Shown here piece by piece: positions 1 to 57,222 of a stretch of DNA of 64,000 bases. Under the pieces are notes generated by a model, which ran no database searches, had not been told where the DNA came from, and saw only the letters and a list, made by a program, of their open reading frames with translations. The position numbers and the translations under genes are program-made. How positions within the stretch are numbered: the stretch's first letter is position 1; the number at the start of each line of letters is the position of its first letter. Source of the DNA: Candidatus Moraniibacteriota bacterium. GTDB lineage: Bacteria; Patescibacteriota; Minisyncoccia; Moranbacterales; GWC2-37-73. The stretch lies in assembly GCA_036845785.1 (NCBI GenBank), contig DAIUDF010000002.1, forward strand, positions 4,552-68,551. Direction: 5' to 3'.

Positions 1-160
1 AACAAAACCCCCGTCTATAGGGGGAATAGCCTATCCTCGCGGAGACCCGCCATACGGACGGTGTTCGGCTACTGTTTGACTCTATTATAATGCATGCAAT
101 AATTTTGTCAATAGTTACTACAGAAGGAGTTACATTTTTCTTTCAGTTTTTTATGGTAGT

Positions 161-16884: not shown

Positions 16885-18414
16885 TTATGCTGCTGGTTCG
16901 TTGCCGGAAAGTTCTTCCTGAATTTCAACTTTCCTTTTCTTTTTAGCAATTATATGTTTGATATATTCCAGATCGTTCTTAGTGATTTCGCCCAAAACAT
17001 ATAAGATTAGCAGATATCCGGCAAATAGTATTACTGACCAAGCTATGAAAATAAATTCTCCTTTGGAAAAAAAGAGTGAAGCAGTAAACATCAGTCCGCC
17101 GGAAAAAATTATTTTCAGCAGGCTTTTAAGTTCGAGAATAACTCCGAAATCGCGTCTGACGTAGTGCAGGATTGCCAGCATAACCACAAAAGAAGTGATT
17201 GTGGTGGCGATTGCCGAACCGGCAATGCCATATTTATTGATCAGAATATAATTCAGAATTGTGTTGACAATGACTCCGAAAATGGAAATAAACATTGGAA
17301 TCTTGGTTTTGCCGGCGCCGTTCAAAACAAAACTCATGACATAAAAAATTGTCAGAAAACCGACGCCGTAGGCTAGAATTGACATCGGGAAAGCGGCGGC
17401 TAAATATTTGTGTCCGTAAAAAATTTGGATAATCGGTTCGGCAAATTGCGACATCAAAATTACCGAGGGCACCAGCAGGATCGTCATCAGCCGCATTGAT
17501 TGGCTGATAATTTTGTTGGTTTCGTCATGATTTTTTTCCGCCGTAGTTTTGGAAACGACAGGCAGCAGCATGATGGTCAGGGCGTAGAAAATATAGTAGG
17601 GAATGCGGCCGACAGTCAAAGCGCCATTATAGACTCCGGTTAAATAATCGTCATGCAAAATACCTTTGACCAAATATAAATCGATGCTGATTAAAAGTTC
17701 ATAAGCCAGAAAAAACAGGATAATCTGCCAGGCGTAGTTTATGAGTTTTTTGGTCTCAAATTGGCTCTCAAGGGCCAAATTTTGCGTTTTGGCGGCTTTT
17801 TTAAGCTCCTTGGTGTACTTGAGCTGGTCAAGCGCAAAAGCGATTAAAAAGACCAGAAATGCGGCCAAGGCATAACCCACGATCGAGCCTGGAACACGGA
17901 AAGCATAGGCCAGGCCGACAATGGCCGCTACCTTGAAAACAGAGCGCAGTGTCTTTAAAACTGACTGGACATTGAATTTGTGGAGGCCGGTGTAGAAAGA
18001 AAAGTAGAATGAGGCCATGGCAAAAGCCGGAATGATCAAAGTTGAAATTCTGAAAAGGGGAGTGAGACTTGGGTCGCCCAAAACATGGGAGATGAGAGGG
18101 GCTGAAAGAAAAAATATAATTGTAATTGCACCGATTAAAATCGTTTGCAAAACAATTGTTTTCTTTTTGATGGCCAGCACCAAGCGCGGGTTGGCTTCAA
18201 AAATCTCGCTGATATATTTGGCCATGGCGGTTGGGATGCCGTTGCCGATGAGAATGATGACCATGGTAGTCAAGGTCACAACTAGGCCATATCTGCCGTA
18301 ATCGGCAGGACCCAAAATCCTGCCCACCAAAGAGTGGATTACATAGCCGGAAAGATTGAAAATTATTTCCGAAACGACGAGCCAAAAAGTTGATCTAGCT
18401 AGGTTGGTTGACAT
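16885..18414 (-). CDS. polysaccharide biosynthesis / oligosaccharide flippase (Wzx, MOP superfamily)
   Basis: 509 aa with ~14 TM helices and the typical Polysacc_synt N-terminus 'ARSTFWLVVSEIIFNLSGYVIHSLVGRILGPADYG'. Confidence 0.6.
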   Translation of the reverse strand: MSTNLARSTFWLVVSEIIFNLSGYVIHSLVGRILGPADYGRYGLVVTLTTMVIILIGNGIPTAMAKYISEIFEANPRLVLAIKKKTIVLQTILIGAITIIFFLSAPLISHVLGDPSLTPLFRISTLIIPAFAMASFYFSFYTGLHKFNVQSVLKTLRSVFKVAAIVGLAYAFRVPGSIVGYALAAFLVFLIAFALDQLKYTKELKKAAKTQNLALESQFETKKLINYAWQIILFFLAYELLISIDLYLVKGILHDDYLTGVYNGALTVGRIPYYIFYALTIMLLPVVSKTTAEKNHDETNKIISQSMRLMTILLVPSVILMSQFAEPIIQIFYGHKYLAAAFPMSILAYGVGFLTIFYVMSFVLNGAGKTKIPMFISIFGVIVNTILNYILINKYGIAGSAIATTITSFVVMLAILHYVRRDFGVILELKSLLKIIFSGGLMFTASLFFSKGEFIFIAWSVILFAGYLLILYVLGEITKNDLEYIKHIIAKKKRKVEIQEELSGNEPAA

Positions 18415-18478
18415 AAATTAAATGACATGCTATTATTTTAAATTAAAAATCAAAAATAAAAAATGGGGAGGGAATTTG

Positions 18479-18811
18479 ATGAATACTTTTTTAGTTCTTT
18501 TAAAAATTGTAGGAGTGGTTGGTCCGATTTTGTTTTCTGTTTTAATAGCTTACAAAATTGTAGTAACCATGGGCACATTTTGTCAAGAAAGTTGCGGTTA
18601 CTTTAGCTTGGTATCAGTTGTGGCGGGCATAATGTATGCCGAACAGCTTTTATTGGTGGCTAAGCTAATGGAGAAACCTTTCTATGCTGGCGGACTTTTG
18701 TGCGGAATGATTATTTCAGTGACAATTTTTGCATGGCTAATGCATGCTTTGCTGAAAGATAATTTTTCCAGCGGACTTCATTTGTTATCTTTACGTGGAT
18801 TGATAATATAA
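18479..18811 (+). CDS. small multi-TM membrane protein (hypothetical)
   Basis: GGGGAGGG SD before the ATG at 18479. The track ORF from 18422 abuts the divergent neighbour and is less likely. Confidence 0.4.
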   Translation: MNTFLVLLKIVGVVGPILFSVLIAYKIVVTMGTFCQESCGYFSLVSVVAGIMYAEQLLLVAKLMEKPFYAGGLLCGMIISVTIFAWLMHALLKDNFSSGLHLLSLRGLII

Positions 18812-20915: not shown

Positions 20916-23546
20916 TTAGTACATCAAAACCGCGACCGGTTCCATTTTGGCCACAACATTGATTATATTGTTTTCTTCCAAACCGCTTATAACTTTTTCT
21001 ACATCTTTATAATACGAACTATCCTGCAAAATCACGCCTTTGGAGGCAGCGTTATATAATTTCACCTTGCTTTGCTGCATTTTTTGGAAGAGTTCTTTTT
21101 TGTTCTTGGCGGCATTTTCTTGGTGGTGTTTGCGGCGTCCGGTGCCATGCGGAGCTGAAAAAAATGTTGATTCATTGTTGTCCGTGCCAACACCGATGTA
21201 GGCAGCAGTGCTCATGGAAGAGGGAATAAAGACCGGTTCGCCGGTTTCTTTGAAAAGCGGATGATCTTGCATGCGGGCGGGTCCGAAGGCGCGCACACTG
21301 CCGTTCCGGTGCACCCACACATTCTGGCCGAAATGATTTTCTTTTTCGATAGAAATATGGGTTGTGTCATACAGAAGATCAAGTTCGACTTGCTTACCGA
21401 AAACTTTTTCCAAAGCATTGTCTAAATGATGGGTTATAACAATTCTGTTGGCAAACCCAAAATTGGCAGCAGCACGATGTGCGTTCCAAAACATCCGTCC
21501 TTCCATAGAATCATCTTCGTAACCGAAAAATTCCTCCTTGTTTTTATAAGCTTCAATTTTTTTGGCCAAGCGCTGATAAACTTTTTTCATCTGGCTGCCG
21601 AAAAAAGTGGTGCCGATTTTCAAAACAATCTGCTGGCTCAGGTGTTCTTTCTTTTTGGGGGTGTACATATAGGAAGCATATTGGCCCATTAGGCCGCTGC
21701 CGGTGTGGATCAAAAAAACATACTGGCCGGTTTTGAGGCCGAATTTTTCAGCAATTTCCGGATTTTTAATTTCCGATATTTTCATGAGATCCAGAAAATG
21801 ATTGCCGGCTGCGCCTAAAATTCCCAGGCGGTAGCTGCCAATTTTTATGAAAAGTTCCGGCACAGAATCCAGAATGTCGCGGCAGCCAGCTGCTTCATCC
21901 CGGAAAAAATTTCCATTGGCAAAAGCGTTTGTAATTTCGTTTTTTGTGCGGATCTTGAAATGATCTAGCAAAGGAGCAGCGCCCGCAAAACATATATTCA
22001 AGGCTGTGCGGTAGGGCACCGGAGTGCCTATGTATTTTTTAGTCGGAACGACTTTAACTAATTCCTGAAAAAGCCGGTCAATACTTTCTGAAGTAACTTC
22101 ATTGTCAAACAAATTAGTTTTGACAAGCCTCATGCCGCAGTTGGGAGCAGTGTCGTTGATTTGCGGCAAGAAAAATTTTTCAGTTGCGACCACGCTGCCG
22201 GTGGGAACTTTGCGTCCTTTTTTGGAATGGACATCGCTCATTTCGGCGACGTGATGGAAAAGGCGCTGGTCTCCCGCCAAGGATTCAATTTCAGAAAGCG
22301 TTTTATCACTGGGCAACAAATCATCAGAAACATGCAAAACGGCCGGAATTTTCATTTTTTCGGTTCGGAGTTCTTTTTTATTGGCGCTCAGGGAATTGAG
22401 TTTATAGGCGGATTCCATAATATTATCTTTCAAAAATTTGTTATAAATATTTTTGTATTGTTCGGCCACATTTTTAATGTCAAAATTGTTCTGCACGAAC
22501 TCGCGGGCGTTTTTGCCAAGGGCAGTTCTTTTTTCCGGATTACTATAGAGATCTAAAATAGCTTCATTTAATTTTTGCACGCTGCCTTTTTCGATTCTAA
22601 CAGAGTTTTCTTCTTTTGCGAACTCCCGAAGAAGCGGCAAATCGGAAATGATGACCGGTTTTTCACAAGCCATAGCTTCAATGACAGCCAAGGGCACATC
22701 AAATTTTCCCTGCATGTTTTTGACCGGAAAAATGCTGATGTCAGCCATATTGTAAAGTTCAAAGACATCATAGAGCCCGTCATCATGAAAGGCTACACGA
22801 TTTAACAGATTATTTTGTTTGAAAATTTCAAAAACTTCTTTTTTCTTGGCTGCATCTTTCTTGTTTTTTATTCTGACAGCCAGAGAAAGCTTGGCTTCCG
22901 GAATCAACTTGGCAATTTCCAGAAAACTTTGCACCACAGTATCCATGGCATCGTTCCGGATATACTCGCCGGTGAAATTGATGATAAAATCACGGGGAGC
23001 AAAAGAATATTTTTGAAGATACTCCGGATTTTTGCCGGTGTTTTTATAAATATCAAGGTCGATGCCGGGATAGATCCTTTCCACATTGCGAAAACCCATT
23101 GCCAGCAGCTTTTTTTTGGTGTAATCGGAATAGGTTATAAGCATGTCTCCAAAAAGCATTTTCTTGATTTCGGCTTCGGAAAAAAGGTCTTCTCGCAAAG
23201 TGGCGATTGTTTGGATTGTATGAAAACGGTCTTTTTTATTTTTAATGAAATTTTTAACCAGGAATGAATTTTGCTTGGTCGGCGTGAAGAGAAAATGCAA
23301 AATGTTGAATTCTTTTTTGAAAGTTCTAAGTTTCAATATTAGCCGGACTTTTTGCCACCAGGAAAAATCGCTTTGAGTATAAATCGGTTTTTGAAGGACA
23401 GAGTCTGGCATATAGGAAAGTTCGCCTTTGGTTAAGAGGCCGATTTTAAAATCAGAAATATTTTTAGCCAGAAAAAAGGCAAAGTTTTTCGAGCCTTCAT
23501 CCCAAGGGGGAGTGATAGGGCGAGTAACAAGTAGGATTTTCTTCAT
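20916..23546 (-). CDS. fusion protein: N-terminal GT4 glycosyltransferase domain + C-terminal RtcB-like RNA-ligase domain
   Basis: Residues ~1-400 are GT4 ('FDVPLAVIEAMACEKPVIISD'). Residues ~400-886 carry RtcB hallmarks in order: 'MSDVHSKKG..PTGSV', 'NCGMRL', 'HTGSGLMGQ', 'FGFANR', 'HRNGS', 'IPSSMSTAAY', 'HGTGRR'. Single uninterrupted 886-aa frame. The track start at 23576 is TTG; the ATG at 23546 is likely. Confidence 0.55.
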   Translation of the reverse strand: MKKILLVTRPITPPWDEGSKNFAFFLAKNISDFKIGLLTKGELSYMPDSVLQKPIYTQSDFSWWQKVRLILKLRTFKKEFNILHFLFTPTKQNSFLVKNFIKNKKDRFHTIQTIATLREDLFSEAEIKKMLFGDMLITYSDYTKKKLLAMGFRNVERIYPGIDLDIYKNTGKNPEYLQKYSFAPRDFIINFTGEYIRNDAMDTVVQSFLEIAKLIPEAKLSLAVRIKNKKDAAKKKEVFEIFKQNNLLNRVAFHDDGLYDVFELYNMADISIFPVKNMQGKFDVPLAVIEAMACEKPVIISDLPLLREFAKEENSVRIEKGSVQKLNEAILDLYSNPEKRTALGKNAREFVQNNFDIKNVAEQYKNIYNKFLKDNIMESAYKLNSLSANKKELRTEKMKIPAVLHVSDDLLPSDKTLSEIESLAGDQRLFHHVAEMSDVHSKKGRKVPTGSVVATEKFFLPQINDTAPNCGMRLVKTNLFDNEVTSESIDRLFQELVKVVPTKKYIGTPVPYRTALNICFAGAAPLLDHFKIRTKNEITNAFANGNFFRDEAAGCRDILDSVPELFIKIGSYRLGILGAAGNHFLDLMKISEIKNPEIAEKFGLKTGQYVFLIHTGSGLMGQYASYMYTPKKKEHLSQQIVLKIGTTFFGSQMKKVYQRLAKKIEAYKNKEEFFGYEDDSMEGRMFWNAHRAAANFGFANRIVITHHLDNALEKVFGKQVELDLLYDTTHISIEKENHFGQNVWVHRNGSVRAFGPARMQDHPLFKETGEPVFIPSSMSTAAYIGVGTDNNESTFFSAPHGTGRRKHHQENAAKNKKELFQKMQQSKVKLYNAASKGVILQDSSYYKDVEKVISGLEENNIINVVAKMEPVAVLMY

Positions 23547-23682
23547 AATATTCAGAAAATAATTTTTAATTTCCAATTTTTAATTTTTAATCAATTTCCA
23601 ATGTTTTAGTTTAAAAATCAAATTGCTGGCGTGCTTTTTTTGGCTTATATTAGGTATTATTTATGATTTTATGTTTAAAGCA

Positions 23683-23711
23683 TTGACAAATTTTTTTAGA
23701 TATGCTACAAT
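23683..23711 (+). promoter_or_regulatory. perfect-consensus sigma70 promoter (TTGACA-17 bp-TACAAT) with no downstream ORF
   Basis: TTGACA 23683-23688, 17-bp spacer, TACAAT 23706-23711. Confidence 0.6.
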
Positions 23712-23717
23712 ATACAC

Positions 23718-23890
23718 TTGAAAGTGATGGTGTGTGTTCTTTAAAAGAGTTTAAGGATTTTTTCTCACACCACAAAAATATAAAGGTGGTCTACCGAAGA
23801 ATGCGGGAGTAGCGTGTTGGATACAGCATAACACGTGAAGCATGTCAAAGGAGATTAGAAAAATCCCACATCATCATTTTCTTTTTTATT
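23718..23890 (+). ncRNA. candidate small structured RNA (~170 nt; 6S-like or unknown)
   Basis: No ORF on either strand. The 5' segment GAAAGUGAUGGUGUG pairs (two G-U wobbles) with the 3' segment CACAUCAUCAUUUUC, which is immediately followed by a U-run. Internal hairpins are also present. Confidence 0.35.
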
Positions 23891-23891
23891 T

Positions 23892-23966
23892 AGGCGCTTA
23901 TACTCGAATCTCTTGTGTCCCAGAGTGGACATATATAAAGAGTAATAGAGGAAGCGCCTTTTTTCT
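23892..23966 (+). terminator. second hairpin + T-run (AGGCGCTT ... AAGCGCCT, TTTTTTCTTTT)
   Basis: Perfect 8-bp closing stem enclosing a GUGUCC/GGACAU inner stem; T-run on the + strand only. Confidence 0.45.
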
Positions 23967-24004
23967 TTTATGAAAAAACTTTTTTTATATTAATTCTATA
24001 AAAT

Positions 24005-24367
24005 TTACAAATTCTTATATATCTCTTTTTTATTATCGCCGGCAGTTACTGTTATGGTAATTTTTCTATCGGAGAAATCCACAGTATCTTTTGGAACAGG
24101 AACGGTTTTTGTCTCACCCGATGGAACAGACAAATTGCTTTCTATGACTACTTTTTTATCAATCAATATTTCATAACGGAAATCGGAATTTTTACTGTGA
24201 TTTTCAACGGCAAAGTCCAGTGAATCGCTTTTGGGATCAGTAAAATACAGCATCCAGACATTGCTGTTGTCGAGGTTGGTATTTCTGGATTCAACAATAG
24301 TCAAAAAAACAAAACTTAGAAATAAAAAGAATATTGTTGAGAAAATTATTAATTTATCGGTTTTCAT
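24005..24367 (-). CDS. small exported or membrane-anchored hypothetical protein
   Basis: N-terminal hydrophobic segment; 120 aa. Confidence 0.4.
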   Translation of the reverse strand: MKTDKLIIFSTIFFLFLSFVFLTIVESRNTNLDNSNVWMLYFTDPKSDSLDFAVENHSKNSDFRYEILIDKKVVIESNLSVPSGETKTVPVPKDTVDFSDRKITITVTAGDNKKEIYKNL

Positions 24368-46053: not shown

Positions 46054-46750
46054 TATAAAATTTTCTATCGCAGGGGTTGTGCGACATTAGGCAGGTTTCT
46101 GTTTTTTTAAAAAAGGAAACTAAAAATCAAGAATCAAATTGCCCGAACCAACCATTTTTCAACTCTTCAGAAGCGGGATATTTAAAAATATAAATTCAGT
46201 GAAATTGCATAAATTCAAGTCTTTACAGATTTGAATTTTTTGTTTGAAAATTTTTCTTTTTTTAAAAAAATTTTTTAAATTCATTTTTTTATTTTTTATT
46301 CAATTATTTTTTTAAAAAATATCCTGAGCTGAGAGTCGGAATGATTTGAGGGGTTTCGGGGATAGGTAGATGTATGCTGAGGTCGGTTCATTTTTGCCAT
46401 AAGTCAAAATAGGGCATCTTTTTAGCAAATGAATGCTTTCAGGGATACATAGATGTATCTGGTTTGGGGAAAATTTGGGGCAAAAACTTCGGAAAAATTT
46501 TTTAATTTTTATTTATATATAAATTCAAAAATGAAATGCATTTTTTAAAAGATAGAACCGGAAAACTGAAATGAAAAAATAGAGGGATCTCAAACAAATG
46601 AGAATATGGGTTAAAAGTATTTAAAAGGGCCAAGAGGGTTTTAATAAGGCTGTATTTTAAATATAACGTCGCAAAAGATATATTGTGCGACATTATATCT
46701 ATAGAAAAAGAGCTACTTACCTACTAAAGCAAATAACTCTCTTTATTTTT
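46054..46750. other. 700-bp non-coding AT-rich island with internal and flanking direct repeats
   Basis: No credible ORF. The 13-bp direct repeat TTGTGCGACATTA sits at 46077 and 46683. Two ~22-nt imperfect repeats GGGATAsnTAGATGTATsCTG at 46352 and 46441. An extreme AT tract lies at 46240-46320. Confidence 0.5.
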
Positions 46751-56914: not shown

Positions 56915-56943
56915 TTGACAAAAAATAACTTTAATGCTATTAT
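56915..56943 (+). promoter_or_regulatory. near-consensus sigma70 promoter (TTGACA-17-TATTAT)
   Basis: TTGACA 56915-56920, 17-bp spacer, TATTAT 56938-56943. Confidence 0.55.
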
Positions 56944-56989
56944 ATTACGTTATTTTAGAAATTTGACAATCAAAAAAGAAAGGAGAAAA

Positions 56990-57151
56990 ATGATGAAAAA
57001 TTTGAACTTAGCAGATGTGGCAGGAATTGCTCTTTCATGGATTGGTGCCGGAATTATTGCATATATCGCAAAAGACGGAGTTGTTGCTGTTGTATGTGTT
57101 GCGGCTGCCTACTATCTTTCTAAATGGATTATACTGAAGGAAGAAAGTTGA
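56990..57151 (+). CDS. 53-aa hydrophobic Gly/Ala-rich peptide (bacteriocin-like or type-I-toxin-like)
   Basis: AAGGAG SD 5 nt upstream; 'MMKNLNLADVAG|IALSWIGAGIIAYIAKDGVVAVVCVAAAYYLSKWIILKEES'. Confidence 0.45.
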   Translation: MMKNLNLADVAGIALSWIGAGIIAYIAKDGVVAVVCVAAAYYLSKWIILKEES

Positions 57152-57182: not shown

Positions 57183-57222
57183 GGCTTCGTGAATATCACG
57201 GGGCCTTTTCTTTTTAGTAAAA
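57183..57222 (+). terminator. rho-independent terminator of the peptide gene
   Basis: GGCUUCGUGA-auau-UCACGGGGCC 10-bp stem (two G-U pairs) + UUUUCUUUUU. Confidence 0.55.

Follow-up and report, generated by a model that had tools for sequence, protein, structure and literature searches.

Here we describe a candidate small RNA (sRNA) gene from a Candidatus Moranbacteria, a member of the Patescibacteria or Candidate Phyla Radiation (CPR). The gene was found in a stretch of 64,000 nucleotides (the window), and all coordinates are positions within this window. It is on the plus strand and lies wholly inside the spacer between two genes of a minus-strand array. One of these is p120 (24005-24367), the gene of a 120-aa membrane-anchored protein, which runs towards the RNA and stands upstream in the sense operon. 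The other (20916-23546) encodes a GT4 glycosyltransferase (GT) joined to RtcB, is divergent from the RNA promoter and is the downstream gene of that operon. We consider it quite probable that the unit is a real, independently transcribed non-coding RNA, its expression being predicted from the promoter, fold and terminators described below. As to function, we tentatively favour, with rather less than even confidence, a cis-antisense sRNA of the GadY type that would act on read-through from p120 into GT-RtcB. A sequence-only reading of this DNA had proposed an orphan structured transcript, either a 6S-like RNA or an undescribed sRNA. The undescribed, independent, non-coding structured unit without a known family has stood, and the 6S-like part has not.

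The promoter was located by sequence reading and by a consensus scan. The -35 hexamer TTGACA (23683-23688, plus strand) and the -10 hexamer TACAAT (23706-23711) are separated by a 17-nt spacer that ends in TGC, with TG at 23703-23704, and the extended -10 as a whole covers 23703-23711. With the TG this putative promoter scores 11/12 and is of a near-consensus sigma-70 type (TTGACA-17-TGnTACAAT). The sequence-only reading had given the TTGACA-17-TACAAT arrangement exactly, and the TG extended -10 can now be added to it. However, the same reading called it the best promoter in the window, and it ties at 11/12 with promoters at 18408(+) and 56915(+); in addition, the window scan finds 12/12 matches with a 16-nt spacer at 111(-) and 56134(+). 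The promoters at 18408 and 56915 have the same TTGACA-17-TGn design (TTGACA-17-TGC-TATTAT) and drive small-protein genes with clear Shine-Dalgarno sequences, and they thus show how a coding unit appears in this organism. These small-gene units cover 18408-18811 (+) and 56915-57151 (+). The ~55-aa product of one such promoter looks hydrophobic by eye and may be a membrane protein, and a hairpin/T-run follows this small gene at ~57190-57215. A TGC-TAnnnT -10 is also found in relatives (L010, L024, L028, L037, L043, L064 and L072; L-numbers such as L002 and L010 denote loci of relatives).

The predicted transcript starts at ~23716-23720 and has two domains. Domain 1 (23718-23891, plus strand) is a multibranched fold with a 15-bp closing stem, followed by a U-run. 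The stem pairs GAAAGUGAUGGUGUG (23720-23734) with CACAUCAUCAUUUUC (23867-23881), including two G.U pairs. This pairing of the 5' end with the segment before a U-run had been proposed in the sequence-only reading, and it is indeed the closing helix of the minimum free energy (MFE) fold. The MFE of 23718-23895 is -46.6 kcal/mol (z-score -3.5), and one of 200 dinucleotide shuffles is equally good. The first U-run, at 23877-23891, may act as a first terminator, and the 15-bp helix followed by TTTTTTAT is seen on the RNA strand only. Domain 2 (23892-23969, plus strand) is an intrinsic terminator hairpin with the stem AGGCGCUU/AAGCGCCU (23892-23899 with 23952-23959) and a T-run at 23960-23969. A second hairpin/T-run terminator, also proposed earlier, is thus present, with T6 directly after the stem (23892-23959), and domain 2 is likely the 3' end of a transcript of ~250 nt. 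From the two intrinsic terminators, RNAs of ~170 and ~250 nt are predicted.

For the whole unit of 253 nt the MFE is -73.7 kcal/mol (z -4.6), and none of 200 shuffles is equally good. In the cross-locus fold comparison the window unit has a z of -6.0 and an energy of -77.9 kcal/mol versus -63.4 for the reverse complement, with eight G.U pairs on the RNA strand versus two on the reverse complement. The hairpin base GGCGC...GCGCC-T5-6-CTTT is common to the window, L006 and L010. Read on the minus strand, both hairpins are followed by A-rich sequence, so the second one provides no terminator there. The transcribed part has a GC content of 0.376 (~37%), similar to that of coding DNA, against 21% (0.205, upstream of the RNA) and 8% in untranscribed parts of the spacer. 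The RNA strand has only two short open reading frames (ORFs; 26 and 43 aa), both lacking a Shine-Dalgarno sequence, and the earlier description of the unit as ORF-less is borne out to this extent.

The same position was compared in relatives, whose neighbourhoods came from contigs encoding relatives, a scan of species-representative genomes (80 loci) and a metagenome scan (22 loci). Together these gave 81 distinct p120-GT junctions with 10,958 nt of spacer. The spacer is shorter than 60 nt in 40/81 junctions, often with a 4-nt overlap of the genes, and p120 and GT are therefore expected to be co-transcribed and translationally coupled there. A long spacer with a consensus promoter that points away from GT is found in 23/81 junctions (24 with L012). 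This module consists of the promoter, a highly structured ORF-less RNA of 85-435 nt and a terminator. Strict TTGACA-16..18-TAnnnT promoters are present in 19 spacers on the RNA strand and absent from the operon strand. By an MFE-based criterion, 17/22 modules have a helix with a U-run behind it on the RNA strand versus 2/22 on the operon strand, usually at the 3' end of the RNA beside the p120 stop codon. Because the arrangement of promoter and terminator recurs in 23 to 24 other lineages, always on the same strand, it is beyond chance. The module RNAs are all strongly structured (forward-strand z from -1.7 to -9.5), and in 16 of 21 cases the reverse complement gives a less negative z. Among these 21 orthologous RNAs there is no Shine-Dalgarno-led ORF and no peptide shared across lineages, and nine have no ORF of at least 20 aa; the window organism clearly uses Shine-Dalgarno sequences (AAAGGAG / GGGGAGGG). 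In L096, L097 and L027 the GT start codon abuts the -35 of the sRNA (CAT-A-TTGACA). A GT promoter of its own would find no room beyond the RNA gene in these loci, and the GT mRNA would have to cross the RNA gene.

Other spacer content is seen in 17/81 junctions and includes a PF05635 gene or palindromic repeats. In three close relatives (RtcB 88% identical) the RNA module is replaced by a 121-aa PF05635 gene in operon orientation (L003 2388-2753, L004 144-509 and L013 3335-3700). We take PF05635 to be the 23S rRNA intervening-sequence protein, or an Avd-like four-helix bundle. Its presence marks the p120-GT spacer as an insertion hotspot. Palindromic units of the form TTGTCATTCC...GGAATGACAA or CGCTCGCTGCGAAATGAA...TTCATTTCGC are found in L044 (3706-3832), L048 (3693-3837), L043 (3' part of the spacer), L015, L021 and L088, and they look like miniature inverted-repeat transposable elements (MITEs) or REP-like elements. 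At L046 (2804-3246), where p120 is not beside GT, a TTGACA-17-TGC-TATAAT promoter near the GT start is followed, in place of a short RNA, by a leader of ~100 nt and a gene for a 99-aa acidic protein.

The suggestion that the unit be sought in related genomes was fruitful, but what is conserved is the promoter, terminator, strand and position only; the RNA sequence, as far as the comparison of loci goes, changes almost freely. In blastn and nhmmer searches of 91 loci only the promoter-proximal part matches (query 1-90, ~23640-23730), and the match with L010 and L011 extends to ~23800 (nhmmer E 5e-5). The loci closest by RtcB, L012 (92%) and L002 (88%), have a different-looking RNA with the same two-domain layout; short motifs common to these RNAs and that of the window are AGGUG..UACCGARG and UAGAAAAAUC. 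Global pairwise alignments of the RNA bodies are not significant (z at most 1.4), and RNAalifold on the window, L002, L010 and L006 finds 0 consensus pairs. As an RNA of conserved fold the candidate is refuted, since the homologous spacers show neither conservation of the body nor covariation, which the sequence-only reading had itself named as decisive. The P0004 and P0005 contigs, considered as sources of closer relatives, are too short upstream. A metagenome scan with GT for closer relatives gave a best match of 77% identity.

Evidence for purifying selection on the RNA is mixed. In L096 and L097 (86% genome identity) the RNA is mosaic, some blocks being identical and some hairpins wholly replaced, and its 5' half is the least conserved stretch of the locus. 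In L105 and L107 (80% genome identity) the RNA is the best conserved part, at 95-97% versus 79% in the flanks. The window itself offers no variation because the RNA region is identical in ten independent assemblies (100% over 701 nt in nine of them and over 534 nt in the tenth), which also indicates that the sequence is real. The ten contigs were chosen as those encoding the identical 120-aa protein.

Cis-antisense action is the simplest function that fits conserved signals together with a free sequence. Two features expected of a GadY-type RNA are found. The RNA is on the opposite strand within the spacer of co-oriented genes that are contiguous in 40/81 relatives, and both promoter (19 versus 0) and terminator (17/22 versus 2/22) are specific to the antisense strand. 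If the function needs promoter, terminator, strand and position and not the sequence, the drift of the RNA body around these four fixed features is explained, and bodies that cannot be aligned and lack a consensus fold are what one would expect. On the minus strand of the window, one promoter-like site precedes p120 (24414-24387) and another falls inside the 3' end of this gene (24060-24032). From 24004 down to 23547 the consensus scan shows neither a promoter-like nor a terminator-like site on this strand, and transcription from the p120 promoter should therefore read through toward GT-RtcB.

The proposed mechanism is as follows. Transcription from the p120 promoter would run across the spacer into GT-RtcB. 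The strong convergent promoter of the sRNA would collide with this sense transcription (transcriptional interference), and the sRNA, which is perfectly complementary over ~250 nt, would pair with the read-through transcript. Formation of the duplex and its processing could then uncouple GT-RtcB from the upstream genes or tune its expression relative to them. The read-through of the sense strand is inferred, and the effect on GT-RtcB could be of either sign.

Several observations weigh against cis-antisense action. A block upstream of the RNA promoter (23641-23659, without strand assignment) is conserved next to the GT start. Its consensus in relatives is a 14-bp palindrome, GGCTTATATAAGCC, followed by AATA, and the window copy, TGGCTTATATTAGGTATTA, is degenerate. 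The block occurs once in the window, where 0.01 chance matches are expected. It was aligned in ~20 lineages, lies 3-5 nt from the GT start codon in most of them and precedes the -35 of the sRNA by ~25 nt. A regulator may use it as an operator, or it may be a GT promoter of leaderless type or a leader (5'-UTR) hairpin. The palindromic block contains TATAAG/TATATA-like hexamers near the GT start and could as a GT promoter produce an mRNA with a short leader, in which case only p120 read-through, and not the normal GT mRNA, would overlap the sRNA. The strong structure of every module RNA (z ~-5) needs another explanation if the sequence is irrelevant, as does the identity of 95-97% between the RNAs of L105 and L107, whose flanks are 79% identical; the RNAs might, for example, be selected for stability or for partners that recognise structure. 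Moreover, 40/81 relatives are without the module, which is thus dispensable, and the divergent promoter of L046 drives a protein gene, so that the promoter position may predate the RNA.

The structure and the conservation in L105/L107 would suit a trans-acting base-pairing sRNA whose location in the spacer is incidental. Such an RNA would use a U/C-rich 5' seed to pair with AAAGGAG-type ribosome-binding sites elsewhere, and we regard it as unlikely. RsaE-like sRNAs of Firmicutes pair with purine-rich ribosome-binding sites, and a strong promoter, structured body and Rho-independent terminator are the classical design of trans-acting sRNAs. The window RNA has the U/C-rich GUUCUUUA at 23738-23745 and C-rich loops, YUCUUUR or CCUUU variants occur in ~10 lineages, and the organism uses AAAGGAG / GGGGAGGG as its Shine-Dalgarno. 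GTTCTTT is present in 6/20 RNAs versus ~5 for the best shuffled k-mer. The RNAs of the window, L028, L045, L059 and L064 have this motif, or something close to it, in their first ~25 nt, and those of L029, L096, L099, L037 and L043 have forms related to it. However, this enrichment is marginal and post hoc, and a strict regular expression matched three loci only. The MFE fold of the window RNA has the motif in paired form, at a distance of 20 nt from the 5' end, no seed is kept across all lineages, and neither a chaperone nor targets were identified. A trans-acting RNA would also have no need for a fixed position and strand in one spacer, which cis-antisense action does require. The opposite reading, which we judge about equally improbable, has no functional RNA at all. 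The hotspot spacer would gather hairpin-rich DNA and serve as a promoter/terminator insulator, its conserved element being a divergent control region of GT-RtcB with a palindromic operator and a promoter, and the transcript a terminated by-product. Complete turnover of the RNA bodies between species, which are mosaic even at 86% genome identity (L096/L097) and show no covariation, fits such an insulator, as do the other insertions in the spacer (the PF05635 gene of L003/L004/L013 and the MITE-like palindromes of L044, L048, L043, L015 and L021), an upstream block and promoter that are far better conserved than the RNA, and the use of the L046 promoter by a protein gene. Yet a by-product needs neither a consensus -35, a 17-nt spacer and an extended -10 nor a strand-specific terminator kept in 17/22 lineages. 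In both GC content and folding energy the transcribed part also greatly exceeds the spacer around it. No segment of the L105/L107 alignment is better conserved than the RNA, and the window RNA is not repeated within the window.

The proximity of an RNA ligase raises the question of a protein-binding RNA tied to RtcB, either a scaffold like the Y RNA YrlA or one that serves as a substrate or decoy, its paired ends being cut and then joined again. RtcB is encoded in the adjacent divergent transcription unit and is invariably linked to the locus, and the RNA has the long 5'/3' closing stem that is characteristic of Y RNAs. The rsr-rtcBA operon of Salmonella includes the genes of YrlA and YrlB. 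This reading is nevertheless very unlikely: neither Rfam nor ARAGORN finds a match or a tRNA-like module, the eight neighbouring proteins scanned have no TROVE/Ro60 domain, a glycosyltransferase gene of ~1.1 kb separates the RNA from RtcB, no fold is conserved, and RtcB is in all loci and the RNA in only ~30% of them. A wider version, in which the RNA is coupled to the GT4-RtcB pair as a substrate, guide or decoy that is cut and religated or modified by a Moranbacteria-specific RNA-repair or modification system, seems to us remote; on this view the body would be hypervariable because of an arms race or of partners that differ by lineage. That the unit is a gene for a small protein, such as the 43-aa ORF at 23842-23973, is hardly credible. 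Plus-strand ORFs of 26 and 43 aa do exist, and promoters of this type at 18408 and 56915 drive small genes, putatively for membrane proteins. However, the ORFs have no Shine-Dalgarno, the 43-aa ORF spans both terminators, 9/21 orthologous RNAs have no ORF of at least 20 aa and no peptide is common to lineages. With ORFs neither Shine-Dalgarno-led nor shared, the coding interpretation was rejected.

Known RNA families were searched for in the window and in relatives. At the gathering score, Rfam 15 gives no match anywhere in the window, and neither the window nor 21 module-bearing loci have a tRNA or tmRNA according to ARAGORN. At E<=10, the 471-nt region 23540-24010 gives chance-level matches only (STnc370, ctRNA_pT181 and BsrC). 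Rfam on 22 related loci (13 + 9) has neither a match nor a recurring family. The 'undescribed sRNA' of the sequence-only reading is supported by this absence of Rfam, tRNA and tmRNA matches. Its 6S-like RNA was rejected, since 6S RNA (RF00013) has no match in the window, in the region at E<=10 or in the 22 related loci. 6S RNA binds the sigma-70 holoenzyme and templates pRNA. The fold had been put forward for inspection for a central bubble, and both the MFE and the centroid structure are a multibranched domain plus a terminator hairpin, not the 6S rod; the orthologous RNAs vary from 85 to 435 nt with 0 consensus pairs, and no architecture is conserved in relatives. Signal recognition particle (SRP) RNA, tmRNA and RNase P RNA were likewise rejected for want of a covariance-model or ARAGORN match.

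A Y RNA or YrlA was also considered. The TROVE (Ro60/Rsr) domain is absent from the eight neighbouring proteins and from the called genes of L002-L011, and a tRNA-like module was not found by ARAGORN (window and 21 module loci) or Rfam. The sequence UCGAAUC (23904-23910) is T-loop-like, without a matching T-stem. A riboswitch or T-box leader was rejected because the next plus-strand sequence is the 3' end of the convergent gene and Rfam has no match. The motif GGUGGUCUACCG in the RNA is reminiscent of a T-box sequence, without a downstream gene or a model match. Other candidates that were rejected are a retron non-coding RNA (msr-msd), as no reverse transcriptase gene is present and the neighbours are p120 and GT-RtcB; a MITE or repeat for domain 1 with its 15-bp terminal inverted repeats, which has no second copy in the 64-kb window; and a phage or mobile origin, for which viral contigs and phage genomes gave no match. 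Literature on CPR sRNAs, 6S RNA or RtcB in Moranbacteria yielded nothing relevant.

GadY of Escherichia coli is a cis-antisense sRNA located between gadX and gadW that uncouples gadX-gadW. Like GadY, the window RNA is encoded against two co-oriented, presumably co-transcribed genes, in the spacer between them. It has a promoter and a Rho-independent terminator of its own and would be fully complementary to a polycistronic transcript, and a duplex that forms and is processed, not a conserved fold, is expected to account for its function. The two have no sequence relationship, and the window RNA is two to three times longer and much more structured. The Moranbacteria module differs further in being present in ~30% of related genomes only and in its flanking genes, which in this CPR host belong to envelope glycosylation and RNA ligation; its action on the sense transcript is a prediction. 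Cis-antisense sRNAs such as DonS are embedded in glycan-related operons, the polysaccharide utilisation loci of Bacteroides. These too form a locus-specific antisense family defined by position and promoter and not by sequence. However, they belong to another phylum and other genes and overlap the 5' end of susC-like genes, and the window RNA is known from sequence alone.

With 6S RNA (ssrS, RF00013) the window RNA shares a strong sigma-70 promoter, the non-coding character, paired 5' and 3' ends and a length of ~170-250 nt, but it has no covariance-model match, is multibranched in place of a rod with a central bubble, and its orthologs of 85-435 nt have no shared structure. With the bacterial Y RNAs (YrlA/YrlB of rsr-rtcBA loci) it shares a long terminal stem and a gene near an RtcB-containing operon. 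Unlike them, it has no nearby Ro60/Rsr gene, no tRNA-like domain and no conserved Ro-binding helix, and it is on the opposite strand with a glycosyltransferase gene between the RNA and RtcB. The candidate is best filed as a new, lineage-restricted cis-antisense sRNA that is notable mainly for its CPR origin and is recognisable only by position and signals.

The genomes of CPR organisms are tiny and encode few recognisable transcription factors, and to our knowledge almost nothing has been reported on their regulatory RNAs. The locus offers a testable sRNA gene that is defined by promoter, terminator, strand and position instead of sequence. Such RNAs would escape screens that depend on conservation or covariation. 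A tightly coupled operon of envelope glycosylation and RtcB is split by the antisense unit in ~30% of Moranbacteria, and loci with and without the module are a natural comparison for the tuning of operon expression in such genomes. The practical value is modest, as this would be a fresh instance of a familiar mechanism with a predicted function.

The sequence-only reading had placed the unit between two minus-strand glycosylation operons. Instead it sits in one conserved array that includes the RtcB RNA ligase, and in half of the relatives the genes on its two sides directly adjoin or overlap each other. The gene order common to all neighbourhoods is DUF6541 membrane protein, p120, GT4, RtcB, Metallophos and/or Tmk, and flippase, and the order DUF6541, p120, GT, RtcB is kept in ~100 Moranbacteria loci. 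A Pfam scan of eight neighbouring proteins (18.4-27.6 kb) identified both RtcB (E 4.6e-72) and Glycos_transf_1 (E 1.3e-16) in the product of 20916-23546(-). In the window GT4 and RtcB form a single reading frame of 876 aa with the junction near 22400-22420, and the relatives of this RtcB are stand-alone proteins of 498 aa from Candidatus Moranbacteria or Patescibacteria. In the junction alignment the GT stop TAA of relatives is TTG in the window, and a 4-codon spacer (KDNI) is in frame. The GT-RtcB of this species is, from its sequence, evidently an in-frame stop-loss fusion. The long frame is also found in contigs of several independent assemblies, one of them with both GT and RtcB Pfam domains. 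Of the ~100 Moranbacteria loci examined, which reach down to ~50% RtcB identity, nearly all have GT and RtcB side by side; the gap between them is usually within ~100 nt and only 3-10 nt in the closest relatives. A sugar transferase is thus paired with an RNA ligase.

The window genome is also present in several public metagenome samples, for example SRR5007225 and JGI 3300010429, 3300025871 and 3300009782, and in that of GCA_022710305.1. Near the RNA promoter, a second inverted repeat (CAATAGCT...AGCTATTG) overlaps the -35 in several loci. Between the conserved block and the GT start, AT-rich direct repeats of AATTTCCAATnTTTTA extend over 23560-23612 and read UUGGAAAUU twice on the GT strand. 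Similar repeats of UUAGAAAUU are found in L003, L013 and L024, and two Logan contigs of one run end inside the 23560-23612 repeat region. In a crude ORF-based map of the window, the longest spacer between ORFs of at least 90 aa is at 46054-46750 (697 nt, 28% GC).

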